From the NCBI GenBank assembly GCA_013299055.1, contig JAAFKB010000007.1, positions 202 through 64,201 of the forward strand: DNA of 64,000 nt, in the 5' to 3' direction. Below, piece by piece: positions 7,765 to 53,300 of this stretch. The stretch is from Sphaerotilus sp. GTDB lineage: Bacteria; Pseudomonadota; Gammaproteobacteria; Burkholderiales; Burkholderiaceae_C. The notes beneath the pieces are model-generated. The model worked only from the letters and a program-made list of their open reading frames with translations, did no database searches and was not told the origin of the DNA. The translations under genes and the position numbers were made by a program. The stretch's first letter is position 1. Every line of letters starts with the position of its first letter.

Positions 7765-7800
7765 ACAGCCGCTGACCGATCCCAACACAAAGGACACACC

Positions 7801-8406: not shown

Positions 8407-8618
8407 ACGAGCCCATCACAGTGCGTATGAGCAGCAAGAAAAAACCCATGCCAGCGAAGCAGAAACTGACACTGCCAGCCAGTGGTAGGGGCGCACTGCC
8501 AAAACGGGAGACAACGTCTCCCACATCTGAAGAAAAGGTGGGGAGCGTGTCTCTACCGCCCCGCAATGAGGACATGGAACGCTTCATTGCTCAAATCAGC
8601 AAGGAGGTGGCGACGTGA
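8403..8618 (+). CDS. Small hypothetical protein (alternative start ATG 8428 region)
   Basis: Overlaps the fic stop (GTGA) and the next gene start (GTGA), consistent with translational coupling; no family motif. Confidence 0.4.
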   Translation: MNEPITVRMSSKKKPMPAKQKLTLPASGRGALPKRETTSPTSEEKVGSVSLPPRNEDMERFIAQISKEVAT

Positions 8619-11516: not shown

Positions 11517-11616
11517 GCAACCTGCTGAAGACGCTGGAAAACATATTGAAGCGTCGTTCCGAACGCAGCGTTCATCGGCGCTGTGTAGAGAATTTCCATA
11601 TCGAAGCCGATAGACC

Positions 11617-13230: not shown

Positions 13231-13268
13231 GGCCAGACCGCCTGAGGGTTCTGACCCCCCCACAAGCC

Positions 13269-13301
13269 AAAAGCCCGCCGGGGAGACCCGGCGGGCTTTT
13301 T
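13269..13301. terminator. Bidirectional Rho-independent terminator between convergent genes
   Basis: AAAAGCCCGCCGGG-loop-CCCGGCGGGCTTTTT with A-tract on the left and T-tract on the right. Confidence 0.85.
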
Positions 13302-13322
13302 GTCGAGTTCAGCGCCTGCGCA

Positions 13323-13649
13323 TCAGCACGGCGTGATGCCTGGGCCGCCACGTTTGCATGGCGGCACCACCACCACCGGGCGAGGCGGATGGTGCGGCCG
13401 GTCCGGGCGCTCGGCCTTGGCATGGCCGCGTCCGCCCCATTGGTGGTCGTGGTGATCGCGACCACCATGGTGCTTGTCTCGGCCATCCATGGTCTGGACC
13501 ACGGGCTGCATGCGCCCGCGGCCACGGGTGTCGGTCGCGTGGGCGGGCAGGCTGCCCAGCAACGTGATCGAGACGAGGGCCAGTGCGCCCAGCACCCGCC
13601 GAGTCGACCCGGCTCCCATGGTGCGCATGATTGAAGTCTGTCGTGTCAT
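13323..13649 (-). CDS. Small secreted His/Arg/Gly-rich protein with a C-terminal Cys pair
   Basis: AGGAG RBS 6 nt before ATG; signal peptide RRVLGALALVSITLLGSLPAHA; mature part DKHHGGRDHHDH...PPCKRGGPGITPC; followed by a terminator. Confidence 0.6.
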   Translation of the reverse strand: MTRQTSIMRTMGAGSTRRVLGALALVSITLLGSLPAHATDTRGRGRMQPVVQTMDGRDKHHGGRDHHDHQWGGRGHAKAERPDRPHHPPRPVVVVPPCKRGGPGITPC

Positions 13650-14134
13650 TTGCCACTCCTGAATTGGTTTTTGAATTACCCGCGCTGTGTGCGGGTAATT
13701 GATTCTAGAGTTTTGGCAGACTGCTATCCGAAATGAATTATTTCGACTTTCTTAAGCTCGACAAAGGTATGGTGTGTAGATTATCTGGTGCGTGGTAATC
13801 AAATCCATATTGCACTCTAGATATAAAAAATGATCATCTTTGAAAGATGAAGCAGTAAAGATGGGAGACGTTGGTCACCGTAGCCATTCAGCGTGGGCAA
13901 TGCGCAGGACAGCACCGGTGTGCTGGAACGCCATGGCCATGCGCTGTCGCGGATGAATTTTCGCATTCCGGCCTTCCGCTCTGCTGCAAGGCCCGATGCC
14001 GACCGAATGGACAGGGCGGATTGTTGGATCTTGTTGCATTTCCGTGCGGCGGACTGCACGGTCTGGCTGGAATTGGAGCGGTGTCGCGCCTGTGGCGCGG
14101 GTGGTGCTCGCCGGGCGGGCGCCCGGCGTCGGGC

Positions 14135-29220: not shown

Positions 29221-29260
29221 GTGAAATCACCGTGACAGCCACAAGGCAGAACCGTGACAG
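29221..29260 (-). promoter_or_regulatory. Pho box array (PhoB sites) upstream of phoX
   Basis: Minus strand CTGTCAC-GGTT-CTGCCTT-GTGG-CTGTCAC-GGTG-ATTTCAC: four half-sites at an exact 11-bp period. Confidence 0.8.
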
Positions 29261-29319
29261 CCCGGGCGCCCGACAATCGTGGGGTCTTTTCCTTTTCAGC
29301 CCGATTGCAGGTACTTGCC

Positions 29320-29568
29320 ATGAACGCAGATCTCCGCCCCTTCCCCCGTCTGGTCCTTCGCCGCCTGGGTCTTGCTGGCGCTGCCGCCGTGCTGGCCACC
29401 AGCCTGAGCGGCTGCGGCGTGGTGGCTGTGGCCGGTGCCACCGCAGGGGCTGCCATCTCGGTGGCCGGCGCGGTCGTCTCCACGGGCGTGAAGGTCACGG
29501 GCAAGGTCATCGAGAAGACGATCGACGTGGTGACGCCGGCGGCGCCGGTGCCGGAGCCGACGCCCTGA
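29320..29568 (+). CDS. Small lipoprotein
   Basis: Lipobox LSGC followed by an amphipathic VAGAVVSTGVKVTGKVIEKTIDVV helix. Confidence 0.75.
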   Translation: MNADLRPFPRLVLRRLGLAGAAAVLATSLSGCGVVAVAGATAGAAISVAGAVVSTGVKVTGKVIEKTIDVVTPAAPVPEPTP

Positions 29569-29572
29569 GGCT

Positions 29573-29590
29573 CGCTGCCTGACAGCTCTC
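29573..29590 (+). repeat. Direct repeat copy 1 (CGCTGCCTGACAGCTcTC)
   Basis: 15 bp identical (17/18) to 32601..32618; both copies are intergenic. Confidence 0.6.
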
Positions 29591-29682
29591 GCCTGCCATC
29601 CTCGCGAAGGCGAGGATCTCTCGCAGAGTCCCGCGTGCCGCCTGAAGCGTCTGGGCATGGGCCGGTGCAGCAGAATGCCGGG

Positions 29683-30306
29683 ATGGGAGAAATTTTCATT
29701 TTTGGACAGCGCCCCGGCCTTTTTGACCTGCTGCCGGTGCGGGCTGTTCAGTTGACCGGGGATGAGTTTGGTATCGGTCTGTCTCGGCGTGCTCTGTCCC
29801 GAGCGGCTGACGATGCATTGCGCGTCATACAGAGTGGAGACGGACTGCCGAACGATGACACCGGCTGGGTGCTGCGCATCAACAAGAAGGGCCGCTCGAA
29901 GATGGGTGACAACCCGGGTCTTTCAGCGACCGACTCGAAAGCGGTTGCTGCGCTGCCTGCACTGGCCCAGCGCGCAGTTGTGGCTGAGCGGCATGCCGAC
30001 GACACGCACCACAACGAATTCGTGTCGGCGGTGTACCGGCTCTATGTCCCTTTGCTGATCGGCGACCAGCTATATCGCGTCAAGCTGACCGTCAAGGAAT
30101 ACGAGCCGGGGGCGGTGGTGGCCGGTACCATGCTCCACGCGCTTTCGAGCGTGGAAATAGAAAACGCCCCGCTGGGAACCGTGCCTGCCTCTGACACCAA
30201 AAAGGTGGCACTACAGCAAGCTCAACCAACCACGGGGCGCGCCTTCAGTGTACGGGATCTGCTCCGTGGCGCCCACCTCCATGACGGGACACTTTTCGTC
30301 GGGTGA
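29683..30306 (+). CDS. Stand-alone LPD3-like domain (large polyvalent protein-associated, BECR-fold)
   Basis: NDDTGWVLRINKKGRSKM..AVAALPALAQRAVVAERHAD..VYRLYVPLLIGDQLYRVKLTVKE resembles LPD3 domains; start uncertain (GTG 29635 possible). Confidence 0.6.
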   Translation: MGEIFIFGQRPGLFDLLPVRAVQLTGDEFGIGLSRRALSRAADDALRVIQSGDGLPNDDTGWVLRINKKGRSKMGDNPGLSATDSKAVAALPALAQRAVVAERHADDTHHNEFVSAVYRLYVPLLIGDQLYRVKLTVKEYEPGAVVAGTMLHALSSVEIENAPLGTVPASDTKKVALQQAQPTTGRAFSVRDLLRGAHLHDGTLFVG

Positions 30307-30350
30307 TCTGCTTGGTGATCCGAAGGGTCGTCCCAGCGTCGCACACCCAT

Positions 30351-30764
30351 TCAGCCAGACGCCCTGATCTGCCAGAACAGCGCATCCAGACATTCCTCCT
30401 GGCGTGTCTCGCACTCCCAGATGACCAGGGATGTCCAGCCGGTCTGTTCTAGCGCGAGCTGGCTGCGCTGGTCCCGGACGACATTCCTGGCAAACTTGTC
30501 CAGCCAGAACTCGCGGCGTGTGGCGGGAGTCGTGGCGTAGCGACAGAACGGGTGTCGGTGCCAGAAGCATCCGTGGACGAAGACTGCGGCGCGGTGTGCA
30601 GAGAAAACGAGGTCGGGGCTGCCGGGCAGGTCTCTGACGTGCAGGCGAAAGCGCAGACCGGTTGCATGGAGATAGCGCCGGACTCTCCGCTCTGGCTGCG
30701 TGTCCTTGCCCCTGATGCTCGCCATCATTCTGGATCTGGTCGCCCCGTCCACCACGTCTGTCAC
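30351..30764 (-). CDS. vsr: Very-short-patch repair endonuclease
   Basis: DVVD..RSRMMASIRGKDTQPE, LPGSPDLVF, FVHGCFWHRH, FWLDK..NVVRD, IWECE; AGGAG RBS 7 nt before GTG. Confidence 0.93.
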   Translation of the reverse strand: MTDVVDGATRSRMMASIRGKDTQPERRVRRYLHATGLRFRLHVRDLPGSPDLVFSAHRAAVFVHGCFWHRHPFCRYATTPATRREFWLDKFARNVVRDQRSQLALEQTGWTSLVIWECETRQEECLDALFWQIRASG

Positions 30765-30867
30765 CGTCGTGCTCCTGTCCATCGTCCTGCGCGCTGCTGG
30801 CTGTAGGATGCCGCTTTTTTGTCTGTTCGGCCGAACTCCTTTGGCGGCCGCTTGCCCGAGTCTCTGA

Positions 30868-32508
30868 ATGCCTGTTCCCGTCATTGATCTGTTCGCCGGC
30901 CCTGGTGGTCTGGGCGAAGGACTTTCCCGCTCGTCGCAAGTCGAATTCAGAACCGTCGTCTCGATCGAGAAGGACGAAATGGCTGCCTGCACGTTGAGGC
31001 TGCGTGCGGCGCATCGGGCCTTGGAGCGTCTGCTCAAGGGGCGGGAGCCACAAGAAATTGACGAGGTCTGGAAGACGTGGGATCACTTGATCGCGGTGAC
31101 TGACTGGCGAGACACGTTGACGCAGTTGAGTGCTCAGGGGGGGGGGTTGATCGCCGAAGCGTGTGTGGAGGCTGGTCGTGAAGCGCTGAAATTTGAGCTT
31201 GGGCCTGATCGCCGCGCAGAAGCCACCGAAATCATCAGGGAACGCCTTTTGCTGTTCACACGAGATGGGCAGCTTCCTGACAACGCCGTGTTGATCGGAG
31301 GTCCGCCTTGTCAGGCGTACTCGCTGGTGGGGCGCGCGCGCAATCGGGGCAAGGAAGACTACCGGCCGGAGGAAGATCACAGGCACTTTCTCTACAAGGA
31401 GTACTTGCAGGTCATAGCCGAATTCCGGCCTGCTGTCTTCGTGATGGAAAACGTCAAGGGTATCCTGACCTCGACTATCGAAGGTGCTCGGATCTTCGAG
31501 TCGATCAAGTCGGATCTTCGGAATCCGGGCGAGGTGTGCGGTGTACCCGGCGGTAAGGGCTACGTGCTGGTTTCGCTGGTGAAGGGTGCAGATGGCAGCA
31601 GCGATACACCATCGGAACCCGCTGCCGATGAGTTCATCGTCCGCACGGAAGAACTGGGTCTGCCTCAGGCTCGGCATCGCGTGATCATCTGCGGGATACG
31701 GGAGGATGTTTTCAGGCTTGCCGGCTACCACGTCGGGACGCTGGTGGCGACGCCGTCTACTGCTGTACACGACGTGATTGCCGATTTGCCCAAACTTCGA
31801 CCTGCACTTAGCTGGCGTGGCGGTGGCGCGTCGTGGCTCAGCAGTTTCAATAGCAAGACGTTTGATGAAGCTATCGGAGAGCTGAGCCAATCAGAAAATC
31901 CCGCACGACGCCGCATTGCACTTTGGATGACAGGATCCGTCACCAGAATGGCGGGGGGGACGCTGGAATCCGGCTCCGAGCGTCTGCCGGTTGCGTGCCA
32001 TTCAAGCTCCGCTGCGCATGGCTGCTGGTATGCCGATCGAATGATCCGTGTGCTTGCGAACCATGAGTCCCGCTCGCACATGCCAGAAGACCTAGTGCGT
32101 TACCTGTTCGTTTCCGCCTATGGTCAGGAAATAGGGTCTAGTCCCCGGTTGGCCGATTTCCCGAAGGCGCTTCTTCCGAAGCACCGCAACGTCGATCCGG
32201 AAAACGTCTCGGCGGCCATCTTCAAGGATCGCTTCCGGGTTCAGGTGTCCGGAAGCCACAGCACCACTGTGACCAGTCACATTGGCAAGGATGGGCACGC
32301 CTTTATCCATCCCGATCCTGTCCAGTGCCGTAGCCTGACAGTCCGCGAGGCGGCCAGACTCCAGACCTTCCCGGACAGCTACGTTTTTCTGGGAAATCGG
32401 ACTTCGCAGTACTCCCAGGTCGGCAACGCCGTGCCACCAATGCTGGCTCGTCGGATCGGTGGCGTGGTCGGGGCAGTCCTGCGTCGTGCAGGACTGGCTG
32501 GCAGTTGA
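30868..32508 (+). CDS. dcm: DNA (cytosine-5)-methyltransferase
   Basis: Motif I DLFAGPGG, IV GGPPCQ, VI ENVKG, VIII PQARHRV, IX VREAARLQTFPD, X QVGNAVP; divergent from vsr. Confidence 0.95.
   Translation: MPVPVIDLFAGPGGLGEGLSRSSQVEFRTVVSIEKDEMAACTLRLRAAHRALERLLKGREPQEIDEVWKTWDHLIAVTDWRDTLTQLSAQGGGLIAEACVEAGREALKFELGPDRRAEATEIIRERLLLFTRDGQLPDNAVLIGGPPCQAYSLVGRARNRGKEDYRPEEDHRHFLYKEYLQVIAEFRPAVFVMENVKGILTSTIEGARIFESIKSDLRNPGEVCGVPGGKGYVLVSLVKGADGSSDTPSEPAADEFIVRTEELGLPQARHRVIICGIREDVFRLAGYHVGTLVATPSTAVHDVIADLPKLRPALSWRGGGASWLSSFNSKTFDEAIGELSQSENPARRRIALWMTGSVTRMAGGTLESGSERLPVACHSSSAAHGCWYADRMIRVLANHESRSHMPEDLVRYLFVSAYGQEIGSSPRLADFPKALLPKHRNVDPENVSAAIFKDRFRVQVSGSHSTTVTSHIGKDGHAFIHPDPVQCRSLTVREAARLQTFPDSYVFLGNRTSQYSQVGNAVPPMLARRIGGVVGAVLRRAGLAGS
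31137..31146 (+). repeat. G10 homopolymer inside the methyltransferase CDS
   Basis: CTCA GGGGGGGGGG TTG (10 G) encodes QGGGL; the longest homopolymer I noticed in the window. Confidence 0.85.
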
Positions 32509-32600
32509 GCTGCACTTGTGTTGTGGTCGCTGATGGAGTGTGGCTTTTTCGGTCTTTTTTGCTGGATACGGCCTGAGTGTGTGACTTGTTTCATGATCGA

Positions 32601-32618
32601 CGCTGCCTGACAGCTTTC
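32601..32618 (+). repeat. Direct repeat copy 2 (CGCTGCCTGACAGCTtTC)
   Basis: Matches 29573..29590. Confidence 0.6.
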
Positions 32619-32670
32619 CCGCTGCTTAGCATGCGCCACGAAAAATCATGTCGTGGCAAAGGGAGGCTGT

Positions 32671-34539
32671 ATGCCAGCGAATACGAACAGTCACGTTGTG
32701 CGGTTGCATCGGTTCCTGCCGTTCAGCGCCGCGCACGACCAGATCTACGAGGAGTACCAGACGGGCGACGATAGGCTCGATCTGGAGACTGTCTCGATCG
32801 ACTACACGGCGGGAGCGATTCGATCCGGCGCCCGCTGTGTGGTCCTCACCGGTGATGCTGGACACGGCAAGACCCATATGTGCCGGCGTCTGCTGGAGCA
32901 GGCGCTGTTGGGGCATGCCCCGCATGTGGCGCGACAGCATCTACTGGAAAGTTGCAACGCTTCTGTCCCGATCCCGCCCGCAGATGGGGTCGATGCGCCA
33001 CGGCTCCGCATGCACAAGGATCTCTCGGAGATTCAGCCTCCGTCCCGAGCGGCGAGACTGCTGGAGGAGTCGGCCGCGAGGGACGGCGAATGCTTGGTGG
33101 TCTGTGCGAACGAAGGGCGACTTCGGGCGATCGTCAATTCGGAGGGTGCCGGTCCTGTATGCGCAGCAATTCGACACCTGTTCGAGGAATCCTTTCGACG
33201 GGGCATTACGGCAAATGCAGACGGGCATACCCACATCGTCAATCTCAACTACCAGTCTGTCGCCGCTGGCGCCGTGCATCGACAGGGCAGCCTGATTCGG
33301 CGGTTGCTTGCCAGTTGGGTCAGTGACGGAAGGCGCTGGTCAGACCGATCCTGCGGAACCTGCGATCACGCCTCCGGGTGTCCTGTTCGGCGCAATCGCG
33401 TTCTTCTGGCTGAAGATTCCGCCGCCGGTTCGCGTTTGCAGCGACTGGAGGAGCTGTTCGAGGTGGTGGAACGGCTTGGTCATGTGGTGACGATCCGGGA
33501 GATGCTGATGCTCGTGGCGTACATGCTGACGGGTGGACTGACTTGCAGCGATGTGGATCGACGCATGTCGGGTGCGTCGGCTGGCTGGCAGCATGCGTGG
33601 AGCTTCTACAACCTGCTGTTCAGCTCGCCCCCGAATCTTCCTGGTGACAGGGCAGAAAAGGTGATCCCAGTGCTGGCGGCCTTGCGGCGGCTGGATCCTG
33701 GCCTCATCGCCGTGAGACGTGTCGATGAGCGCATCCTGAGCCTGGGGCAGGTGTTCGAGACGAGTCAGGTCGATCTGCAGTTCACGGTTCAGACAGGCAG
33801 CGGGAAGACGATCGTGGACGCCGCATTCGGCATCGATGACTTCAACGGCAACCCGCAGACCCGCGCAGATCAGCAGCGGGAAGCCGAAGCGACGAATCTC
33901 GCCGTGGCTGCGCTTCGCCGCAGGGCCTTTTTCGATGACGTGAACACTCGCGAGAGCGTCATGCAACGCCTCGGGTTCAGGTTCGGTGACATGTTCGTTC
34001 GGCTGATCGCTGGAACGATGAGCGTTCCGGATCGGGTGAAAGCCAAGAACACCATCGTGGCTGGACTGCATGCCATCCAGAGCCTGCGCACCGGGCGGAA
34101 CGAAACGATGCTGCACTTGGTCGATCCCGCTTTCGGAAAGGCCAGTGCCGATGCGGCGATCATTGCCCGTCGAATCCCGGTCGATCGTATCAAGCTGATG
34201 TCTGCCAGCGGCGCTTGGCTGGGTGGGCAAGTTACCAGTTGGTTCATGCCGAAGGCCGTGGACTGGATAGACCGCACAGTGGTCCTTCGTGTCGATGAAA
34301 GTCTGAACTTGTTACGGGAGCTGCCGCTGGATCTGCTCTCGTTCGAGTGCATCTCACGGGCGGCGTCCGGGCATGTCAGTGAAGAGTTCTATGCCAATGA
34401 AATTCGACAGGTGCGCACGTTCCTGGGGCAGCTCGCAGAGAGCACGACCGACGACGCTTCTCAAATCATGATCTTCATGCGCGGGCAGATTCAGAACGTG
34501 TCGCTCGACATGGGCGTGATTCAGGTGGGGGGCGAGTGA
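32671..34539 (+). CDS. P-loop NTPase, DptF/DndF-like
   Basis: GGGAGG RBS; Walker A VVLTGDAGHGKT, HKDLSE, VVCANEGRL, IVNLN, CGTC....GCP; layout reminiscent of DptF. Confidence 0.6.
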   Translation: MPANTNSHVVRLHRFLPFSAAHDQIYEEYQTGDDRLDLETVSIDYTAGAIRSGARCVVLTGDAGHGKTHMCRRLLEQALLGHAPHVARQHLLESCNASVPIPPADGVDAPRLRMHKDLSEIQPPSRAARLLEESAARDGECLVVCANEGRLRAIVNSEGAGPVCAAIRHLFEESFRRGITANADGHTHIVNLNYQSVAAGAVHRQGSLIRRLLASWVSDGRRWSDRSCGTCDHASGCPVRRNRVLLAEDSAAGSRLQRLEELFEVVERLGHVVTIREMLMLVAYMLTGGLTCSDVDRRMSGASAGWQHAWSFYNLLFSSPPNLPGDRAEKVIPVLAALRRLDPGLIAVRRVDERILSLGQVFETSQVDLQFTVQTGSGKTIVDAAFGIDDFNGNPQTRADQQREAEATNLAVAALRRRAFFDDVNTRESVMQRLGFRFGDMFVRLIAGTMSVPDRVKAKNTIVAGLHAIQSLRTGRNETMLHLVDPAFGKASADAAIIARRIPVDRIKLMSASGAWLGGQVTSWFMPKAVDWIDRTVVLRVDESLNLLRELPLDLLSFECISRAASGHVSEEFYANEIRQVRTFLGQLAESTTDDASQIMIFMRGQIQNVSLDMGVIQVGGE

Positions 34540-35840
34540 TGTCCGCAAAATCGACGACAGCGACGGTCTACGCACCTGACATCACACAGAAACTGTTCGG
34601 CGGAATATTCGATGTAGATGGATCCGGACACTATCCAGGGCTGGAATTGATCAACTTGGTGGTGTGCTGTGCCGAAGGGACGCTGCCATCCACCGAAAAG
34701 GTGCATGTGCTCCGTGCAGCCCATGACTTTGCACGCCGGCTCATCGCTGACAACGAAATGCCCTCGGAAAAGGTGGCAGAGGTGCTGATGAACGAGCACA
34801 CGACCCATGCTATTTCCCATCTGCTGCGCTGTCTGGAGATGGACGTTCCGAACGTGGTGGGCAGCAAGAGCTGGGAGCGGACGCATTTCTTCCCCTACAC
34901 GCGCTCGCTGGTGCATTGGGATGCCCGCCGACCCAGAAGCGAAAACAGCCCGCCCTCGCTGGAGCGGCGCTATTACCGGGGTGCCGGGGCCTATGCTTTT
35001 TCCGTGCTACGGCGGGATCCGGTCGCCGGGCGGCTGCTGGCGCTGCGAGAGGGTTTCGACGCGCTATATCCGAAAGAGCGCCGCTCTCCCTTGGAGCAGT
35101 TGGCCTCGACCCTGCGTGAAAAGGGTTTGATCGATGCCCAGCCTTCGCTGGACAAGATCGAGGAACGATCTGAACTGCACGGCGACCGCTGGGAAGATCT
35201 GCTGCGCGACGGGATGCAGAACGTGTTGAGCCATCGAAGCCTGCCAACCGTGCAGCGGGTGCGTGCCGTGATGAACTGGACCTCGATCTGGCTGGTGCTC
35301 ATGGAAGCTGCCCGCGCTCTGGCAGTGGCCGGGACACAGTCACTGTCGCTGACCGTTGACTGTGCGGGAACCCACCCACAGCTGCGCCGTGCAGCGCAAC
35401 GCTGCTTCAAGGACATGGTGGGCGTGATCGAGCAGGTGTCCCGTGAAGAGGGGCAGCGGCTGGGGTCGCTCAGTCCGGTTCAGCTTGGAAAGATCCGCGC
35501 GTTCTATGGCAACACCGCCGCGGCCGGTGGGCTGCTGAATGCCTGGAAGGGACGGCGGCATTTCACCCTGCGTCTGCCCGCCATCGAGGCGATGGTGCTT
35601 GCAGCGGTGCCGGCTGGGACGGAGATCGAGTTCGATCGCTTCCTGACAGAGTGGCTGCATGACCGATGCGGCATCGTCGCAGGCCGGGAAGGGGCATCCC
35701 GAGCAGGTTTGCTCAAGGAATTCGACGGAACGATCTTCGAGGAAAACGAGCGGCGTCTGGCCGATCAGATGAGGGCGGCGGGGATGCTCAGAGTCTTTTC
35801 CGACGCAACAAGAATGGTCCACGCGGGAGGGCGCTGGTGA
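34539..35840 (+). CDS. Hypothetical protein, DptG/DndG-like
   Basis: TGATG coupling at both ends; 433 aa; C-terminal winged-helix-like segment ending LADQMRAAGMLRVFSDATRMV, reminiscent of the DptG C-terminus. Confidence 0.5.
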   Translation: MSAKSTTATVYAPDITQKLFGGIFDVDGSGHYPGLELINLVVCCAEGTLPSTEKVHVLRAAHDFARRLIADNEMPSEKVAEVLMNEHTTHAISHLLRCLEMDVPNVVGSKSWERTHFFPYTRSLVHWDARRPRSENSPPSLERRYYRGAGAYAFSVLRRDPVAGRLLALREGFDALYPKERRSPLEQLASTLREKGLIDAQPSLDKIEERSELHGDRWEDLLRDGMQNVLSHRSLPTVQRVRAVMNWTSIWLVLMEAARALAVAGTQSLSLTVDCAGTHPQLRRAAQRCFKDMVGVIEQVSREEGQRLGSLSPVQLGKIRAFYGNTAAAGGLLNAWKGRRHFTLRLPAIEAMVLAAVPAGTEIEFDRFLTEWLHDRCGIVAGREGASRAGLLKEFDGTIFEENERRLADQMRAAGMLRVFSDATRMVHAGGRW

Positions 35841-38800
35841 TGTCTGAGGTACTTGCAAGGACGGCGGCACGGATCGCGTCTCTCGTGCTCGAACGCAACA
35901 AGGGTGCAGACCACCAGTGTGTGCGGATCAAGAATCTGGACGCGGAAGAAGTGATCCGGTTCGTGAACGCCTGGCCTGCAATCGCCACGGCAGCCGGTGT
36001 CCACAAGGTCAGTCTTGTCGTGGCTGATGATCTGGGCGGGCGGATCCCTGCCGTGTACGTCGCTGCGCCAGGCTGCACGATCACGCACTACCGCAATCAC
36101 AACCGGCAGGGACTTGTCTACGTCGAGACCAGCATCCAGAGCGATGAGCAGGGCCTGCAGAACATGTTCACCCTGCGGGACAGCAATTTCCTCGATGGAA
36201 GCTTTGACGAGCACGCCGCCTCCAGCCGTGGCGTGCCCGGACTCCTTGCGCAGGAAGCGTGGTCCGTCAGCGCCGCAGATGGCGTGGTGCCACCTCTGCT
36301 GCTGGATCGTCTGTTGACCGTGCTGGGTCATGTGCATCCGGGCATTGTTTCTGTCTCCGTTCGCCGATTCGTGGACTTTGTCGAAGAGGTCTGCCGCACC
36401 TGGCAGGGGCACACCGAGGCCATCGATGGCGCTGTGGCAGATCGCATCGTCGGTGAGTCGTTGTGGGCGCTGGAGAAGCTGTTTCCGGACGCGCATTGGC
36501 ACGATGGTGGGTCCGATATCCGTTGCCGGCGGCGGCTGTCGATGAATTTTCGGCATGCCGACCTGGTGGATGGAACCACGGAGCTGACTGCGGAGGACAT
36601 CGCCTCCAAGGTCCGTTCCGTGCGGTTCACTGATGTGGCTGGCTCACCACTTCCGGCGGCGGCCATCCGGGAATGGGCCGGGTTGTGCGAGCAGTACGGT
36701 CGTGACCGTTCTCTGGGGATGCGGCGCCGGATTCCCTACGAAATTTTTTGTCAGCTCTTTGCCCGCGATACGGCTGGACTCAAGCTGGGTGAACGGGTGC
36801 GTGCTGAGATCGAGGCAGCGGCACCTGAACGCCTGCATGAATTCGAGGCGCTGGATCTCACGTCGGGATTGAATGCCCGCAGCAGCCATGCCGCTGCCCA
36901 GTTGCAGGATGCGCTCCCGCCTGAAGGACTTGCGCCGCTCATCGAACTGGCCAGTGCGAAGACGCGCAAGTCGATCGAAAGGCTTGCTGTTCCACCCCGG
37001 CGCAGCTTCTTCAATCCAGCCATTGAAATCGTTCGCCAGACGCAGCGGGTGCAGGCCGACCTTCAGGATGGTGCCGTTGCTCGCTTGGAAATCGAGGCTG
37101 CTGGAGGGGACGATGATGGCGTGCGAAACCCTTCGATCGGCCTGTTCGCGTTCCTGTTCGGACCCACGCTGGAATCGATCGCTGCTGACGGCGACGAACT
37201 GACGGGCAGGTGTCAGCTTGTCGTGGACCCGCTGTTGCTGGCACAGCAAGAGGTACCGAGTCGGCCAGTCCATCACGATGATGACCTTGGCGAGGGTCTT
37301 GGCGAGGAGATTTCCTGGAGTGCCGTGTCGCTGCGTTTCGTCTTCAAGGATATGGCCGGGCACATTCTCGAAGTCGTCGAGCAGCTTGAATGGCGCCCGC
37401 CGGCCATTCAGCATTTCGCCTTGTTCTGGCTGCTTGCCGCAGCGCCCGAATCTCCCGGTTTCGCCGATGCCGGCACACTGTGTCGGCAACATGCGGGCGA
37501 TGAGGAACATTGGCTCGCCTCCCTGGTCGGTCGTCAGTCCGAGCTGACAGAGCTGGTGCTGGATCCCTCGCATGTCATCGAGAACCCCAGCCTGCTGATG
37601 CGTGAATTTGTCGAATCGCGGCAGTCGCTGAAATCCAGTCTTGTCGAAGGTGGGCTTTCCATCCCCGCCCTGCTGACTTTCCACGATGCATGGCAGTTGC
37701 ATCTGATCGAGGCTCGTAGTCAGTTCATTCCTGAGGGCGTGCGCATCAGGGAGCTGGAGGCTTTTCTTGGCACGGACCTCCTTCAGATCGAAGGCTCCGA
37801 TCGCCGATTGATGCTTCCATCGCATCCGATCCGCTTGCGCTGGATTTGTCGGTATCTGGAGCAGACCCGCAAGCTGGCGTGCGATTTCTTGTCTGGCGAC
37901 GCGGCGTTTGCGGATGGGGAGGGGCGGGTCTACCTGGACTGGCTGGAAGACCTGACGCCCAGGGAATCTCCACCGATTGCCGTGGGGCAGCAGGGGCAGT
38001 TGCTGTACTCGCGCGCTGAAGTCGGCTGGTGCGAGGATTTTTCTCCGCAGCGGACAGAGACCGGGGATGTCGCCTGCGACGACGAGGCCATCGCGGCCAT
38101 CTCTGCCCGTGTCGCGAACTACCTCGACGCACACCCGTACAAGCGAGACGGGCTTTCCTTGCTGGTGGTGCTTCCTACCAGCGACACGACTCCAGCCGAG
38201 ATCCTTCGACACATCACGTCCGGCGTGCATCGCTCCGTGCGGGTGTCCATCGTGGTGGCCGCACCCAAGAAGCGGTGGGAGGCCATTGCCCGTGCGGTCG
38301 AATCGGTCGCCGGGGATGATGGCGATGCGCCTCGTCGGCGACTATTTCCTGATCGAGATCTGTCTCTGGTGGACTACGAGGCTGGTGGCAGTCTCACCGA
38401 GTTTCTTGCTGATCAGCAGATCGACATTGCCGTGGTGACGCATGTCTTGCAGGAGCAGGTCATCAGCCAGCAGAACACGGAGGTGCCGGTGGAGCATGCT
38501 GGCGCTTTCGATCCGCTGGGACACCGTCCCTTGCGCATCGAGACGGGCGCCGGCGGGTCGATGTCGCTTGTGATGCTGCCCAAGTATTCAGATCCGATCC
38601 TGGAGGCATGGAGCACCCTGGTCGTTCGATCCAACCGTTGCAAGCCCGTCGCGCCCGGTCAGCCCGAGAACACCGACCTGATCGAGCTTCGCGTGAGCTT
38701 TCAGGATTCGGCCCGACTCTTCCATGAGCTGCATGAGCATTGCCACTGGGTGATCACCCTTGAACGCCACATCACGCGGGAGCAGATCGAATCCATCGAG

Positions 38801-40975
38801 TCTGGTGCTCCGGATGTGCTGAGCATCGAGGTTGGTGTCGGGGCAAATCGCCTGAGCACGCTGATCGTGTCGTCACGCACGGGGCGAGATCTGGTTCGCT
38901 CGCGACTGGCCCGCAAGCTGCAGCGGCTGCTCCCTTCCTGGACTGCGGCAGGCGCTGACCGGAAGGTACTCCATGCCTTGGCTGAGGGTGTGTACGAATC
39001 GACTCGGCGCTTCAGCCCTCGATTGGCGCTTCAGGCGCTCGGTGTTGCGCGTGTGACCGAGGAAATCATCGGGCTGACGGTCGCTCGCCATCTGACGGAA
39101 GAGCGATTCCCGGTCCAGAACCAAGATGGCGTTTCGGTCTGGCTCAGCCTGGACGAGCACGTGGGCTGGTTCGGTGGTTCGGATCAGATCCGGGCCGACA
39201 TGTGCCGGCTATCCCTTGAGCATCGTGCGGATGGGGCGATCACGGCCGACGTTCTCGTCCTCGAAGGGAAACTGCGCCAGATCTACGATGCTCACGGCGT
39301 GCAACAGGTTCGCCGCACGTCCAGCTTCTTCCATTCGATCCTGAGTGGACGGGGGGTCGATGCTGCCCGCTGGCGCGAACTCCTTGCTGGTGCAATCGAG
39401 AGCGTTGCCGACCACGCAATCCAAGTTCACGCCGAAGGTGCCGACGCTGTGACCGCCAGGTCCGTCCGTGACCGGACACTTTCCGCCCTGCGAACGGGGC
39501 CGGTCGTGCTCCGAGGGGTCAGCGGTGTTTACTCGATCTGCCTGTGGGATTGCGACGACGAGCAGGTCGATGTTCGGCAAGATGGTGATGTCGCCATTCT
39601 TCAATCTGGGCGGTGTCATCTGGTGGATCTTCTGAAGGAGCGTGCGGCGCCAGCTCAGATGGATTCAATGGATGTTGGAATGCCCCCGCCTCCAGACAGC
39701 CAAGCAGTCAGCACGCCCGAAGTGCCGCCGCAAGCCGATCTTTCCCCTGATGAAATTCCTGTCGTCGTGAGCGAAGCCGCTTCTGTCATGCCAGATCCTG
39801 GCGTAGATGGTGTGCGCACGGACAGCACGGGCGAGCCAGACATAGGTTTGCCTGAGTCCAGTGCAACTGACGGGGATGTCGTGTCAATCAAACCAGCACT
39901 CTCACGGCGGCGCCTGTCACCGGACGTTCTGCGGCGCATCTATGAGAACTTGTTGGGCTGCTTCGACGTGCATGGCGTGTCTGTTTCTGCCGTTCGCATG
40001 GACGATGAGCCCTTCTTGGAAGGCCCCGCGTCGATTCTTTTCAAGGTCCGACCAGGCGCGGGCATTGATCCTCGCAAGCTGTTCGAGAAGGGGGCGGCCT
40101 TGAAGCTGGCGCTGTCCTTGGCGCAAGAGCAGAACGTCAGTTTCGGGATTGATCGCGGCGTGGTCACGATTGATGTGCCCAAGTCGCAGGAGCAGCGATA
40201 TTTTGTCGATGCAGCTGAGACGTGGGGCCGCTGGAAGCGCCCGGCATCAGGCTTGGCCGTGCCGATTGGCGAAGACCGTTTTGGTGAGCTTGTCGAGCTG
40301 AACTTCTCCTCGCCGAACACGCCGCACCTGTTGGTGGCTGGCACGACGGGCAGCGGAAAGTCGGAGGCGCTCAACACGATCCTTTTCGGACTGGTTCGGC
40401 ATTACGCACCGGAAGAGCTGCGTCTGATGCTGGTCGATCCAAAGGGAACGGAACTCACCCCGTTCGAGAACTCCCGGTTTCTGGAAGGGCAGATTGGCTG
40501 GGATGACTCCGATGCACTGGAGTTGCTGAAGTCGGCAGTCGAGGAGATGCAGCGCCGCTACCAGCTCTTCCGCGAGATGTCTCGGCGGAGCCTGATGGAG
40601 TTCAATGCCGAGGTGCCAGTCGAGAAGCGCCTGCCGTGGTGGCTCATCGTTCTGGATGAATACGCCGACCTGACACATGATCCGCAGGCCAAGAAGAACA
40701 TCGAGGCGGAGCTGAAACGTCTGGCCCAGAAGGCTCGGGCTGCAGGCATTCACGTGATCATCGCGACGCAGAAACCAAGCGCCGAGGTGATCAGTACGAA
40801 TCTGCGCAGCAACTTGCCCGCGCAGTTGGCGCTGCGGGTCAAGAGCGCAATCGAGAGTCGTGTCGTGATCGACGAGGCTGGAGCCGAGAACCTGAACGGC
40901 AAGGGTGATGCCTTGTTGAAGGCGGATGGGCGCCTCCAGCGTATTCAGTGTTCTCGGGTGGCTCCTCTTGCCTGA
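35840..40975 (+). CDS. 1711-aa protein with PD-(D/E)xK-like motif and C-terminal FtsK/HerA ATPase, DptH/DndH-like
   Basis: HLLVAGTTGSGKS, LVDPKGTEL, LIVLDEYADL, RLAQKARAAGIHVIIATQKP, GAENLNGKGDALL; upstream RAD..VLEGK; no N-terminal TM domain and no FtsK gamma domain. Confidence 0.75.
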   Translation: MSEVLARTAARIASLVLERNKGADHQCVRIKNLDAEEVIRFVNAWPAIATAAGVHKVSLVVADDLGGRIPAVYVAAPGCTITHYRNHNRQGLVYVETSIQSDEQGLQNMFTLRDSNFLDGSFDEHAASSRGVPGLLAQEAWSVSAADGVVPPLLLDRLLTVLGHVHPGIVSVSVRRFVDFVEEVCRTWQGHTEAIDGAVADRIVGESLWALEKLFPDAHWHDGGSDIRCRRRLSMNFRHADLVDGTTELTAEDIASKVRSVRFTDVAGSPLPAAAIREWAGLCEQYGRDRSLGMRRRIPYEIFCQLFARDTAGLKLGERVRAEIEAAAPERLHEFEALDLTSGLNARSSHAAAQLQDALPPEGLAPLIELASAKTRKSIERLAVPPRRSFFNPAIEIVRQTQRVQADLQDGAVARLEIEAAGGDDDGVRNPSIGLFAFLFGPTLESIAADGDELTGRCQLVVDPLLLAQQEVPSRPVHHDDDLGEGLGEEISWSAVSLRFVFKDMAGHILEVVEQLEWRPPAIQHFALFWLLAAAPESPGFADAGTLCRQHAGDEEHWLASLVGRQSELTELVLDPSHVIENPSLLMREFVESRQSLKSSLVEGGLSIPALLTFHDAWQLHLIEARSQFIPEGVRIRELEAFLGTDLLQIEGSDRRLMLPSHPIRLRWICRYLEQTRKLACDFLSGDAAFADGEGRVYLDWLEDLTPRESPPIAVGQQGQLLYSRAEVGWCEDFSPQRTETGDVACDDEAIAAISARVANYLDAHPYKRDGLSLLVVLPTSDTTPAEILRHITSGVHRSVRVSIVVAAPKKRWEAIARAVESVAGDDGDAPRRRLFPDRDLSLVDYEAGGSLTEFLADQQIDIAVVTHVLQEQVISQQNTEVPVEHAGAFDPLGHRPLRIETGAGGSMSLVMLPKYSDPILEAWSTLVVRSNRCKPVAPGQPENTDLIELRVSFQDSARLFHELHEHCHWVITLERHITREQIESIESGAPDVLSIEVGVGANRLSTLIVSSRTGRDLVRSRLARKLQRLLPSWTAAGADRKVLHALAEGVYESTRRFSPRLALQALGVARVTEEIIGLTVARHLTEERFPVQNQDGVSVWLSLDEHVGWFGGSDQIRADMCRLSLEHRADGAITADVLVLEGKLRQIYDAHGVQQVRRTSSFFHSILSGRGVDAARWRELLAGAIESVADHAIQVHAEGADAVTARSVRDRTLSALRTGPVVLRGVSGVYSICLWDCDDEQVDVRQDGDVAILQSGRCHLVDLLKERAAPAQMDSMDVGMPPPPDSQAVSTPEVPPQADLSPDEIPVVVSEAASVMPDPGVDGVRTDSTGEPDIGLPESSATDGDVVSIKPALSRRRLSPDVLRRIYENLLGCFDVHGVSVSAVRMDDEPFLEGPASILFKVRPGAGIDPRKLFEKGAALKLALSLAQEQNVSFGIDRGVVTIDVPKSQEQRYFVDAAETWGRWKRPASGLAVPIGEDRFGELVELNFSSPNTPHLLVAGTTGSGKSEALNTILFGLVRHYAPEELRLMLVDPKGTELTPFENSRFLEGQIGWDDSDALELLKSAVEEMQRRYQLFREMSRRSLMEFNAEVPVEKRLPWWLIVLDEYADLTHDPQAKKNIEAELKRLAQKARAAGIHVIIATQKPSAEVISTNLRSNLPAQLALRVKSAIESRVVIDEAGAENLNGKGDALLKADGRLQRIQCSRVAPLA

Positions 40976-41064
40976 AAAGTTTCACGATATCGACTTCGGC
41001 TGTGGATGCTGCTTCCGCGGGCATGACGGGAAGGTCGCAGGGGTCAGCGCAGCGGCCGGATCGC

Positions 41065-43443
41065 TCACTCAATCGGCGTCAGCTTCGCCACACTGAGCGC
41101 CAGCCACTTCGTCCCATGCCGCCCGAAGCTGACCTGCGCCCGCGCATCCGGCCCCTTGCCTTCGAGCGCCAGGACCACGCCCTCGCCGAACTTGTTGTGG
41201 AACACCGCCTGCTTCACCCGCAGGCCGTGCCCGGCGGAGTCGGCCGCGCTGCGCACCATCGCGGCCGGCACTGGGGCGGCCCAGGCGGGAGGCGGCGCGG
41301 GGGTGGGGGTCCACGCGGGGCGTGATGGGGCGCTGAATCCACCACCGAATCCACCACCGCCGCCGAAGCTCTGCCGCTTCGGCGTGAGCCACTTCAGCGC
41401 CTCCTCCGGCAGCTCGTCCAGGAAGCGGCTCTTCACGTTGTAGCGCGTCTGCCCGTGCAGCATCCGCGTCTGGCTGTGGCTGATGTAGAGCCGCTGCCGC
41501 GCCCGCGTGATCGCCACATACATCAGCCGGCGCTCTTCCTCCAGCCCGTCCGCCTCGGTGGCGGAGTTCTCGTGCGGGAACAGCCCTTCCTCCAGCCCGG
41601 TGATGAACACCGCGTCGAACTCCAGCCCCTTCGCGGCGTGGACGGTCATCATCTGCACGGCGTCCTGCCCGGCCTGCGCCTGGTTGTCGCCCGCTTCCAG
41701 CGCCGCGTGGGTCAGGAAGGCGGCCAGCGGCGACAGGATCTCGCCCGTCTCCGCATCCGGCAGCAGCTCGCTGGCCGTCTGTCCGGTCTGGCCCATCTCG
41801 TCCACCGGCAGCGCCACCGCGTCCTTGCCAAACCCTTCGATGGTGACAAACGCCTCCGCCGCGTTGACGAGTTCCTCCAGGTTCTCGATCCGGTCCTGGC
41901 CTTCCTTCTCGGTGCGGTAGAAGTCGATCAGCCCGCTGGCGGCCAGCATCTGCTCGATGATCTTGCGGAGCGTCTGGCCTTGCGTGGTGTGGCGCAGTCC
42001 GTCGACCAGCCGGGCGAAGCCGCCGACCTTGGCCCCTGCCGCGCCCGTCAACCCACTGACCGCCTGGTAGAGGCTGCGGCCACTGGCGCGGGCGACTTCC
42101 TGCAACTGCTCCACCGAGCGCGTGCCGATGCCGCGGGCCGGGAAATTGACGACGCGCAGAAAACTCGTGTCGTCGTTCGGGTTCTCGATCAGCCGCAGAT
42201 ACGCCAGCGCATGTTTCACCTCCGCCCGCTCGAAGAAGCGCAGGCCCCCGTACACCCGGTACGGCACCCCCGCATTGAACAGCGCCGACTCGATCACCCG
42301 CGACTGCGCATTGCTGCGGTAGAGCAGGGCGCATTCCGAGCGCGCCATGCCGCCCCGGTGCAACTGCTGCAGCTCCTCCAGCAGCCACGCCGCTTCGGCA
42401 AAGTCGCTGGTCGCTTCATAGACGCGCACCGGCTCGCCCGGCCCCGCCTCGGTGCGCAGGTTCTTGCCCAGCCGCCCCGTGTTGCGCGAGATCAGCGCGT
42501 TGGCCGAATCGAGGATGTTGCCGAAGCTGCGGTAGTTGCGCTCCAGCTTGATGAGCTTGCTGACGCGGTACTCGCGCTCGAAGTCCGCCATGTTGCCCAC
42601 GCGGGCGCCGCGGAAGGCGTAGATGCTCTGGTCGTCGTCCCCCACCGCGAACACCGCGCACGGCACATCCCCCTGCACCGGGTCGCCCGCGAACATCTTC
42701 AGCCAGGCGTACTGGAGCCGGTTGGTGTCCTGGAACTCGTCCACCAGGATGTGCTGGAACCGCCGCCGGTAGTGCTCGCGCAGGCCGGCATCGTCGCGCA
42801 TCAGCTCGTAGCTGCGCAGCATCAGCTCGGCAAAGTCCACCACGCCCTCGCGCTGGCACTGGTCTTCATACGCCTGGTAGATCTCCGCGAGCTTCTGGCT
42901 GTGCGGGTCGTGGATGTCCACGTCCTTGGGGCGCTTGCCTTCTTCCTTGGCGCCGGCAATGAACCAGGCGACCTGCTTGGGCACGAAGCGTTCCTCGTCG
43001 AGCTTCATCCCCTTGATGACCCGCTTGACGGCGCTCAGCGAGTCGCCGCTGTCGAGGATCTGGAACGACTGTGGCAGGGCGGCCTGTTTCCAGTGCGCGC
43101 GCAGGAAACGGTTGCACAGCCCGTGGAAGGTGCCGATCCACATGCCGCGCACGTTGAACGGCAGCATCGCGCCGAGCCGGGTCAGCATCTCCTTGGCGGC
43201 CTTGTTCGTGAACGTCACCGCCATCAGCCCGGCCGGCGAGACCTGACCCGTCTGCAGCAGCCACGCGATGCGCGTCGTCAGCACGCGGGTCTTGCCCGAG
43301 CCAGCGCCGGCCAGGATCAGCCCCGGCTCGGGCGGCAATGTGACCGCGGCGAGCTGTTCAGGGTTGAGGTTCGCCAGCAGGCGGGACGACACCGGGGCGG
43401 CGGGGTCGTGGGGTGTCGTCGAGAAGTCCGGGGAGGCGTGCAT
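41065..43443 (-). CDS. uvrD: DNA helicase II (UvrD)
   Basis: AGAGSGKTRVLT, TFTNKAA, VDEFQDTN, VGDDDQSIY, LERNYRS, TVHAAKGLEF, EERRLMYVAITRA; C-terminal Tudor-like HNKFGEG. Confidence 0.95.
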   Translation of the reverse strand: MHASPDFSTTPHDPAAPVSSRLLANLNPEQLAAVTLPPEPGLILAGAGSGKTRVLTTRIAWLLQTGQVSPAGLMAVTFTNKAAKEMLTRLGAMLPFNVRGMWIGTFHGLCNRFLRAHWKQAALPQSFQILDSGDSLSAVKRVIKGMKLDEERFVPKQVAWFIAGAKEEGKRPKDVDIHDPHSQKLAEIYQAYEDQCQREGVVDFAELMLRSYELMRDDAGLREHYRRRFQHILVDEFQDTNRLQYAWLKMFAGDPVQGDVPCAVFAVGDDDQSIYAFRGARVGNMADFEREYRVSKLIKLERNYRSFGNILDSANALISRNTGRLGKNLRTEAGPGEPVRVYEATSDFAEAAWLLEELQQLHRGGMARSECALLYRSNAQSRVIESALFNAGVPYRVYGGLRFFERAEVKHALAYLRLIENPNDDTSFLRVVNFPARGIGTRSVEQLQEVARASGRSLYQAVSGLTGAAGAKVGGFARLVDGLRHTTQGQTLRKIIEQMLAASGLIDFYRTEKEGQDRIENLEELVNAAEAFVTIEGFGKDAVALPVDEMGQTGQTASELLPDAETGEILSPLAAFLTHAALEAGDNQAQAGQDAVQMMTVHAAKGLEFDAVFITGLEEGLFPHENSATEADGLEEERRLMYVAITRARQRLYISHSQTRMLHGQTRYNVKSRFLDELPEEALKWLTPKRQSFGGGGGFGGGFSAPSRPAWTPTPAPPPAWAAPVPAAMVRSAADSAGHGLRVKQAVFHNKFGEGVVLALEGKGPDARAQVSFGRHGTKWLALSVAKLTPIE

Positions 43444-50394: not shown

Positions 50395-53300
50395 ATGTCC
50401 TCGACTACCGCTGTTGCACGCTGCCTCCAGGCGTGTTTTTTCCGCTGCGCCACGCTGGTGCGGCACGCTCCGCTCTGGTGGGCCTTGGCCTGGCTCGGGC
50501 TGGGGAGTCCCTGGCTGGCGCCGGCCGCGCAGGCGGCGTCCTTCAACTGGACTGCGGCGAGCTGCGTCGGCGCGGCCCCCTGCACCGGTGTCGGCGGCAT
50601 CACCCGCTTCAGCAACGCCGTTTCCGGGGCCAATCCGCGCGACATCCTGGTCGAGGTCATCTCCAACACCAACGGCGCCAGCGTCAACGGCAGCATCGTC
50701 GGTGCCGTGACCAGCGGCGTCGCCCACATCGACGGCCGCGTCAACACCAACCTCACGCCCTCGGCGGTGTCGCAGGTGCGCTTCCGGCTGCGCTTCGTCA
50801 CGGTGGGCACCACCACCGACAACCCGCTGCCCGGCCCGGTCTACTTCACCAGCCTGGACACCGACGGCATCCTCAGCCCGACGGTCGGTGGCTACCGCGA
50901 ACGCTTCGAGATCATCACGCCGACCACCAACCTGGTCATCGGCCCCCAGCTGGAGACGACCGGCGCACTGGCGGGTGGTCAAGCCTATGCCCCCAAGGTC
51001 TGCACGGCTGCCGACGTGAGCCAGCCCGGCTGCAATGACCCTGCCTATGGTGGTGTTGGCAACTACGTCTTCTATTCGCTGCTGAACCCTACGCCCAATG
51101 TCGCGGCGACAGCGGTCTACACCGGCGTGGTCGGCAACATCGACTTCGCGTTTGGTCTGGAAGTCCCCGCGGTCGGTGCCGGCACGAATCCCCCGTCGCC
51201 CCGCGAGTCCTTCCGCCAGTTCGGCATCGCCGGCGGTGTGCCGGACGCCGACATGGTGCCCACCCCGATCACCTGCACGCCCAACCCGGTCGCCGCCGGT
51301 GCACCCACCACCTGCGCGCTGACCTGCACCAACAACGGCCCCGATGCGGCGATCAACCCGTCGTGTGACTTCACCGGCACGCTGCCCGCCGGGGCCGTGC
51401 GCAGCGCCGGTTGCGGCACCTTGACCGGTCTGCTCGCCAGTGGCGGCAGCCGTGCCTGCAGCATCACCTTCACGCCGACCGTCGGCGGCCTGCTCAACCT
51501 GACGGGCGGCACCACCGCGCTCAACGACACCAACGGAGGCACCGTGGTCACGGCTGGCAACAACCCGGCCACGGGCTCAGTGAACGTGACTGCACCCACC
51601 ACGGCAGACATGGTTCCGGTGTTCAGCAACCTGCCGACCCTGCTCAGCCCCGGCACCCGCTACAGCGGCTTGACGCTGACCTGCGGCAACGCCGCGGGCG
51701 GTGCCGCTGCGCTGGCCGCCAGCTGCGCACCGGGTGTTTCCGCCGGCACCGTGACCGGGGTGGCGTGTGCGCCCGCCAGCGGCAGCACCGTGGCCGCTGG
51801 TGCCAGCGTGGTCTGCACCTTCGACTACACCAGCCCCGGCACCGCCGGCGGCAGCGACACCGCCGACACCGCCATCACCTTCACCGGCACCACTGGCGCC
51901 ACCAACGACGCCAACCTCGCCAACAACACCGCCACCGCCGACATCGCCCTGATCGACGCCCTGGACGAAGCGATGACCACCCCCTACGGCACGGCGGTCA
52001 CCCTGTCCATCCGCGTCAACGACAGCCGCGGGACCACGGCGGCCACGTTCGGCAACACGACCGTGACCCTGCTGAGCGTACCGACCCCCGGCTCTGCCAT
52101 CGACCTCTCCAGCGGCCTGTTCAGCACCACCGCCACCACCCCGCCCGGCACCTACACGGTCACCTACCAGCTCTGCGCCAGCCCTGCGCTGACGCCCGCA
52201 GTCTGTGACACGGCCACGGCCACCATCGTCGTCGGCCCTGGCGCGGACATGGTGCCCACCTTCGGCCCGCTGCCCGGCGTCGTCCATCCCGGCCAGCTCT
52301 ACACCGGCCTGACGCTGAACTGCACCAACGTCGCCGGCGGCAACAGCGCCGCCACCGCCCGCGGCACGCTCTGCCAGCCACAGGCCAGCGTCGGCACGGT
52401 CAGCAACGTCGTCTGCAACCCGCTGGTCGGCGCGGAGGTCGCCAGCGGCGCGGTGCAGACCTGCTCCTTCTCCTACCTGGCCCCCGGCACCCAGGGCGGC
52501 ACCGACGAGGCCACCACCGCCGTCACCTTCACCGGCACGACCGGCGCTGCCAACGACCTCAACGGCGGCGTGACCACGGGCGGCAACAACCTGGCCACGG
52601 CCACCACCGTGGTCATCGACGCGCTCGACGACACCACCGGGCGGGCGGGCGGCCTGACGGCGCAGACCTTCGCGCTCGACACCAACGACCAGTTCCCCGC
52701 CGGCAGCGTCTTCAGCCTGCGTGCGGGTGGCACCTGCGCCAGCGCCAGCGTGGGCAGCACCGGGCTGGCCACCTACGACGTGCCCGCCAGCGGCACCTGC
52801 ACCGTGCCGTACCAGGTCTGTGCCCCGGCGCCGGACACGACGGCCTGCGACACCGCCACGCTCACCGTCACGGCCACCGCGGCGGACATGGCGGCGGCGT
52901 TCAGCGGCCTGCCGAGCGCGCTGCGTCCTGGGCAGGTGCTCACCGGGCTGGGGCTGACCTGCACCAACGTCGCCGCCAGCGGTGCGGCCGCGGCCGCGAC
53001 CTGCACCCCCACGGCCAGCGCTGGCACGGTCTCGGCCGTCGTCTGCAATCCGGCGGTGGGCGGGACGGTGGCGTCCGGTGCGGCCATCGCCTGCACCTTC
53101 ACCTACACGGCTCCCGGTGTCCAGGGTGGTGCCGACGAGCCTGCGCTGTCCGTGGTCTTCACCGGCACGACCGGCGCCGCGAACGACACCAACGCCGTCA
53201 ACGACGTGGTGCAGACGACCGCCACGGTGGTGGACGCCGTCGACGACAACATCGGCCAACCGGGTGGCAGCACCGGCCGCACCACGCCGCTGGCGCCGAA

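Follow-up and report, generated by a model that had tools for sequence, protein, structure and literature searches.

Can a restriction complex built on the plan of DndFGH and SspFGH, for which the known self mark is a phosphorothioate (PT) in the DNA backbone, be licensed by 5-methylcytosine (5mC) instead? The question is raised by a locus of Sphaerotilus sp. (contig JAAFKB010000007.1), in which a vsr gene stands divergent from a complete C5-cytosine DNA methyltransferase (C5-MTase) gene, followed by three co-directional genes, joined by TGATG overlaps, for proteins of 622, 433 and 1711 aa (hereafter F, G and H). All positions are those of the 64,000-nt window, that is, the whole stretch of DNA analyzed. 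The five genes, as described in an initial annotation, are present with intact motifs:

30351..30782, minus strand: Vsr very-short-patch nickase, 143 aa from ATG (PF03852, E 2.7e-28; TIGR00632, 140.6 bits against a cut-off of 97.85)
30868..32508, plus strand: C5-cytosine DNA MTase of the 'long' family, 546 aa (PF00145, E 5.4e-41)
32671..34539, plus strand: F subunit (SspF/DndF/Mad6-core-like), 622 aa, a derived P-loop NTPase (PADLOC SspF, E 3.5e-39)
34539..35840, plus strand: G subunit (SspG/DndG-like winged-helix), 433 aa (PADLOC SspG, E 8e-15, C-terminal 85 aa only)
35840..40975, plus strand: H subunit (SspH/DndH-like), 1711 aa (PADLOC SspH, E 2.4e-85; PF01580)

The system is a real, intact and widespread locus, and what appears to be new in it is the pairing of a C5-MTase and Vsr with an FGH-like trio. 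It probably constitutes a restriction-modification-type defense, in which the C5-MTase marks host DNA and the SspFGH/DndFGH-like complex is predicted to nick or cut unmarked DNA; we infer that 5mC is the mark by which the trio recognizes self. How DndFGH and SspFGH discriminate self from non-self with only 10–15% of the sites PT-marked is presented as unresolved in the portion of PMC8092258 dealing with this point. If the reading proposed here is true, a sister machine licensed by one ordinary methylase makes that question directly testable with defined substrates.

The F, G and H proteins and their relatives

F carries a Walker A motif at G61–T68 (GDAGHGKT), an Asn-type Walker B (CANEG) and a Cys cluster (C228/C231/C237/C292); the Walker residues are among its invariant columns, read from 17 sequences, and no solved structural relative was found by sequence search. 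G is predicted to be the DNA-binding subunit. Its AlphaFold2 model (predicted local distance difference test, pLDDT, 94) matches DndG (PDB 7exx) with Z 15.4 over 327 aligned positions (root-mean-square deviation 5.8), the next match having Z 5.4, and DndG 7exx is also ranked first by Foldseek (probability 0.91, E 0.065), which returned nothing at E ≤ 0.001 for G or for residues 1–1200 of H. The model of this part of H (pLDDT 85) contains an S-adenosylmethionine-methyltransferase fold at about 740–1015 (fold search Z 13–16), followed at about 1060–1190 by a PD-(D/E)xK nuclease motif (E1075, D1120, E1142 and K1144; in sequence RAD1120...E1142-G-K1144) that is invariant in 30 of 30 sequences. After a poorly conserved linker (about 1250–1350), an intact FtsK motor occupies about 1360–1705, with K1507 and D1606/E1607 (Walker A/B), the arginine finger R1633 and the sensor Q1644, and matches FtsK 2iuu with E 9.5e-70. 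The RAD..ExK nuclease-like motif and the FtsK motor recognized in H by the initial annotation are thus borne out, the nuclease, Walker and arginine-finger residues being invariant across relatives. The hit list of the H(1–1200) fold search was filled by the methyltransferase domain, and this search did not resolve the N-terminal part, in which DndH has inactive SWI2/SNF2, helix-turn-helix, beta-sandwich and target-recognition (TRD) domains. Decayed copies of the trio also occur (L044, L092, L075 and L023, with H missing, G truncated, H split and F shortened).

A likeness to DptFGH, asserted at the outset, holds for the fold of G and the architecture of H, whereas the nearest named family by sequence is SspFGH and the PADLOC models of DndF, DndG and DndH give no match to the trio at E ≤ 0.01. 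The three co-oriented homologues of sspF, sspG and sspH resemble SspFGH in gene order and sizes, in the Walker A of F and in the FtsK-like C-terminus of H, but score well under the true PT-linked members of SspABCD-SspFGH (in bits, 133 versus 464–1037 for F, 53 versus 508–822 for G and 285 versus 524–1695 for H). Against the genuine sspABCD-sspFGH plasmid locus L030, identity amounts to 28% for F (N-terminal half) and 25% for H, and G is not significant. Furthermore, G and H of the window are shorter (433 and 1711 aa versus about 505–545 and 1770–1825), and the trio is adjoined by a C5-MTase and Vsr in place of sspABCD or a PT-associated putative methyltransferase. In the PT-type sspFGH loci with enough flank (L030:22853-24862, L125, L129, L133, L139 and L138), a 'DNA phosphorothioation-associated putative methyltransferase' is always found beside sspH or sspB.

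In a FastTree phylogeny of 93 F sequences, the window clade is monophyletic with a support of 0.989, although its members were collected for their likeness to the window protein, a sampling that favors monophyly. Its sister group consists of PT-linked SspF and a single kinase-fused F, and MADS-type proteins fall outside. The trio thus forms a separate clade, sister to SspFGH, and is built on the plan of DndFGH. The clade is likely to be unassigned in defense annotations, because it is without the sspBCD partners that define SspFGH. Comparison with Dnd is valid at the fold level, because G matches DndG and because H and F follow the plan of DndH and DndF, although SspFGH is nearer by sequence: the canonical Walker A, Asn Walker B and Cys cluster of F are those of DndF, and in H the methyltransferase fold precedes the restriction endonuclease (REase) and HerA/FtsK domains as in DndH, the DndH domain order and the DndF template being taken from the passages of Rakesh et al. 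2024 (PMC10853773) devoted to them. In those passages, the systems linked with cytosine methylases are those with CxC-DndE and not FGH. Unlike DndFGH systems, 26 of the 27 trio-carrying genomes are without dndBCDE by the DndC cut-off.

The MADS system is also related. Profiles of the clade match the C-terminal NTPase of Mad6 (E 1e-22) and Mad8 (E 6e-10); the G profile does not match Mad7, but the PADLOC SspG model does, and the PADLOC SspF model also retrieves MADS loci. Conversely, only the mad8 model among the MADS PADLOC models matches the trio, in the motor region (E 3.9e-25), with no match for Mad6 and Mad7. MADS differs in using N6-methyladenine (m6A) placed by a type I-like MTase with a specificity subunit, in the kinase domains of Mad6 and in the Mad3-Mad4 nuclease, none of which is encoded on the inserted island that carries the trio (see below), and the H motors belong to other FtsK/HerA groups. 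As summarized in the preprint of Maestri et al. (bioRxiv 2023.03.30.534895), MADS restricts DNA without its m6A motif and requires mad6-8; the second nuclease, Mad3-Mad4, is mentioned in the relevant part of PMC13662399. MADS restricts unmarked DNA, and its Mad6 and Mad8 share homology with F and H. Licensing of an FGH-like core by methylation is therefore no new principle; the m6A of MADS is its precedent, and 5mC would be a third mark. The description of the locus as a modification-swapped Dnd-like system holds in that the PT genes are replaced by a C5-MTase and Vsr, but a swap to methylation has already been shown in MADS. Two further combinations were seen: a kinase-fused MADS-like F-G-H trio (L137:7620-19493, with L138:4544-11898) lies a few kb from sspBCD, not from an m6A methylase, forming another effector/mark pairing, and at L141:9807-17167 a short kinase-less F and a Mad7-like gene are followed by a type I-like m6A MTase with a specificity subunit.

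That the locus does not correspond to DISARM or Mza, as first stated, agrees with our searches: only the MTase matches the DrmMII models of class II DISARM, DrmA, DrmB and DrmC being absent from the open reading frames (ORFs) of the island, and no Mza model matches the trio. MzaABCDE with its adjacent Dcm-Vsr uses the same long C5-MTase plus Vsr unit, but its effectors are unrelated. The claim that the window contains no type II REase holds for the island ORFs, which were the ones checked out of the 64 kb. Targeted literature searches found no paper naming an FGH-C5-MTase-Vsr system, with the provisos that the neighborhood tables of PMC10853773 may list such loci and that subscription papers lay outside the search.

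Linkage to the methyltransferase and phosphorothioation genes in carriers

Loci were collected from genomes (26), from metagenomes (the best 80 of 106) and from a sample of the phylum (2), and were merged at 95% F identity into 94 loci. A C5-MTase was seen in 58 of these and vsr in 36, and sspBCD in the fetched flanks of none. In the 28 loci with full context (H complete, with 3 kb or more of flank at either end; most of the 66 set aside were cut by a contig end, and a few had broken or missing G or H), a C5-MTase lies within 2.03 kb of the trio in 27 and vsr is present in 20, with sspBCD in 0/28; the linkage of the trio to both genes is therefore conserved. The MTase calls were made by phmmer against three reference MTases, and PADLOC and Pfam confirmed nine loci. 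The MTase lies downstream of the trio on the opposite strand in 12 of the 27 loci and on the same strand in 4; it lies upstream on the same strand in 8 and on the opposite strand in 3. Of the linked MTases, 20 are of the long family and 7 of other subfamilies. Given these four arrangements and several subfamilies, the link between MTase and trio has been re-made repeatedly.

At L006, the sole exception among the 28, an MTase of the same family lies together with vsr at a distance of about 75 kb, in a region rich in insertion sequences (IS). An IS-mediated inversion was considered as the cause of this split but not adopted, the two flanking IS21-like elements being just 66% identical, although other identical repeats join both regions, which are IS-rich and rearranged. 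A same-family MTase is also found elsewhere in the genome for the contig-edge loci L007 and L025, and no MTase match was found in the genome of L023, which retains only an F fragment; with L006, these make up the four genome-derived loci that have no MTase next to the trio. The family comprises at least 492 F clusters in several bacterial phyla; a plasmid collection yielded one PT-type F and none of the 5mC type.

True SspD is absent from all 27 carrier genomes, closed chromosomes included (two weak matches gave 46–50 bits), and the control search was positive in 4/4 PT-type genomes (278–361 bits). DndC exceeded the cut-off in 1 of the 27, with one partial and one weak match in addition. In the window's own assembly (G000, locus L028), which is 83.8% complete, SspB/C/D, DndD, DndE and SspE were not found, the DndE search being made without a positive control, and the only match to the 3'-phosphoadenosine-5'-phosphosulfate-reductase family is weak and comes from a frame of 252 aa that has no relation to SspD. 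If the trio were instead a usual SspFGH that depends on PT, with its license supplied by ssp or dnd genes at some other place in the genome, this would accord with its best family matches (SspF/G/H), with the true DndC of that one carrier and with the incompleteness of the assembly. Nevertheless, the SspD count largely refutes this explanation, and the missing sspBCD in the flanks and the trio scores far under those of true members stand against it as well, so that it must be considered extremely improbable. The initial annotation had named dndBCDE elsewhere in the genome as a possible source of licensing; PT genes are absent from nearly all carriers.

Proposed licensing of the trio

In the first step of the predicted mechanism, the C5-MTase would methylate cytosine within a short sequence; CCWGG is the most likely one, as suggested by motif depletion and by a putative kinship of its recognition motif with Dcm-type enzymes. 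The motifs of the MTase are intact (FAGPGG, motif I; GPPCQ with C148, motif IV; ENV, motif VI), and the target-recognition region of the long family carries a T-x-x-H-x-x-K-D-G motif, which we take to resemble that of Dcm/EcoRII-type enzymes. Vsr would then repair the T:G mismatches arising from deamination of 5mC, a function established for Vsr families, and so limit the mutational cost of the mark. F, G and H may assemble into a complex by analogy to DndFGH, with G and the methyltransferase-fold/TRD region of H contacting DNA, as their predicted folds suggest. Finally, the FtsK motor would move the complex along DNA, and the PD-(D/E)xK site of H would damage unmarked DNA and block phage replication in the manner of SspFGH, which, in the experiments of Wang et al. 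2021 (PMC8092258) concerned with this complex, damages DNA that is not marked and proves toxic when its mark is missing.

Of 48 palindromes, CCWGG shows the strongest extra depletion in the FGH genes of 29 long-family loci compared with flanking ORFs (observed/expected 337/522 versus 632/745), the expectation being derived from synonymous-codon shuffles and the flanking ORFs being crude calls. It is under expectation in 25 of the 29 loci, and low values are likewise seen for Mza genes (0.63) and for the window island (23/44). The depleted motif differs by group, being CCWGG in groups A and B, CCGG (13/29) in group D and CCSGG (54/88) in group G; genome-wide k-mer depletion in the host gave no informative signal. 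CCWGG may accordingly serve as a lead, and as a lead only, to the MTase site.

Several observations weigh against licensing by this MTase at such a site. Depletion of CCWGG extends to the FGH genes of the PT type (0.70–0.74) and to flanks (0.84), and FGH falls below flank in 13 of 18 testable pairs, from loci that are kin. No segment of F, G or H shifts with the MTase subfamily in the 14 pairs compared; L012 and L020, which differ in subfamily, are 82–86% identical over their whole length, a pattern also shown by the same-type pair L010/L020. If the trio read one specific sequence, co-variation with the MTase would be expected, except where the MTases have sites in common. Three readings follow: sites that are shared or nested, loose reading of marks by the trio, or a license that does not come from the MTase. 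FGH-, Mza- and REase-linked MTases are interleaved in their tree, and the window MTase is 75% identical to the Mza-linked MTase of the congener G444, but at most 58% to the FGH-linked MTases tested. Because of this interleaving and of a closest match that is Mza-linked, not FGH-linked, the MTase could be a general passenger of defense islands. The absence of PT genes from the window's own genome is, moreover, a weak negative, because the assembly is 83.8% complete and lacks a housekeeping cysteine desulfurase, showing gaps.

In one alternative, the trio is a stand-alone counter-invader complex cued by infection (nucleotides, DNA ends or pumped DNA), and the MTase-Vsr pair accompanies it to protect the island or host against other restriction enzymes, without acting as a license. 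DndFGH is argued to act alone in the section of PMC10853773 that sets out such a model, which also counts against our proposal. FGH does not co-vary with the type of MTase. Among 20 fetched loci with the long MTase but without FGH, a scan of selected neighbors placed Mza genes next to the MTase in 14 or more and type II REase-like genes in 3. AspBHI-like methyl-directed nucleases accompany the MTase in five loci, and the trio of L006 is intact despite the distance of its MTase, although that genome still has both MTase and vsr. On the other hand, linkage in 27 of 28 loci and in four arrangements far exceeds the background, the long MTase family being found in 21 of the 400 genomes sampled from the phylum (5%), of which only 2 carry the trio, and the nearest tested relative, SspFGH, is toxic without its mark in the assays of PMC8092258 cited above. 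We consider this alternative unlikely. Rather improbable, in our estimation, is a license given by the density of 5mC or by a minimal CC core, for which any of several C5-MTases would serve in place of one fixed site. Trios that have hardly changed are paired with at least five MTase subfamilies, differing CC-containing motifs are depleted in differing groups, and PT density is raised as a possible cue in the part of PMC8092258 on this issue; against this, the group counts are small with many motifs tested, and the same part reports that CCA-PT protects from SspFGH whereas GAAC/GTTC-PT does not. The licensing of the trio by 5mC from its linked MTase thus remains the preferred reading.

A more general and tentative extension, less likely to be right than wrong, is that FGH is a mark-agnostic restriction engine plugged into backbone sulfur (Ssp/Dnd), m6A (MADS) or 5mC (the window clade), in which methylases are swapped, also with Mza, and the reader is unchanged. 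5mC and PT might be interchangeable licenses for sister machines, because the MTase, if CCWGG is its site, would act at the very CCA step into which SspABCD introduces sulfur. If this is true, Dnd, Ssp, MADS and the window clade form one motor-nuclease effector family with exchangeable marks.

The MTase-Vsr unit is a module that Mza systems use as well and that is often exchanged. The closest relatives of the window MTase lead complete Mza operons in congeners (L224:9094-18686; L227:8176-17854), and Mza may rely on the same 5mC mark. The AspBHI-like methyl-directed nucleases adjoin the C5-MTase at L012:18495-19673, L014:18223-19380, L068, L089 and L122 of the clade.

The inserted island and its surroundings

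The genes delimited at first (30351..40975) are confirmed, but the inserted unit is larger (about 29569–41064) and includes one further ORF:

29569..41064, no strand: inserted island of about 11.5 kb (flanks joined in congeners, empty-site joint, low GC content at third codon positions, GC3)
29635..30306, plus strand: LPD3-domain ORF, 223 aa (PF18798, E 1.9e-15)

The insertion point lies between the stops of a small gene (29254-29568, plus strand) and uvrD (end 41065). The island is interpreted as an insertion of about 11.5 kb because the same flanking genes nearly abut, about 20–30 bp apart, in four congeners (G444, G443, G436 and G430) and because the empty-site joint 29538->41065 is seen on a contig of run X17. 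The codon usage is foreign, as noted initially, with a GC3 of 0.66–0.79 in the island genes versus 0.92–0.94 in the adjoining host genes. The assembly across the island is sound: one contig spans 28500-41176 with zero differences, from a run that may itself be the source, and near-identical pieces of the island also occur in a sequencing run from another study. RNA contigs of X17 overlap pieces of the island but are uninformative on transcription, no sigma-70 promoter consensus was found, and none of the six island ORFs (LPD3-domain ORF, vsr, C5-MTase, F, G and H) encodes an integrase. The stop codons that flank the island are convergent.

The LPD3-domain ORF sits on the island but outside the conserved system, its homologues among the fetched loci being confined to three loci, all without FGH. 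These homologues, 57–60% identical, are located at unrelated sites in three congeners (L228-L230). Elsewhere in the window, a second low-GC stretch extends over 5000-14000 (0.52–0.63), and ARAGORN calls a tRNA-Gly(acc) at 42258-42353 inside uvrD, which is probably spurious, and a tRNA-Ala(ggc) at 51838-51928.

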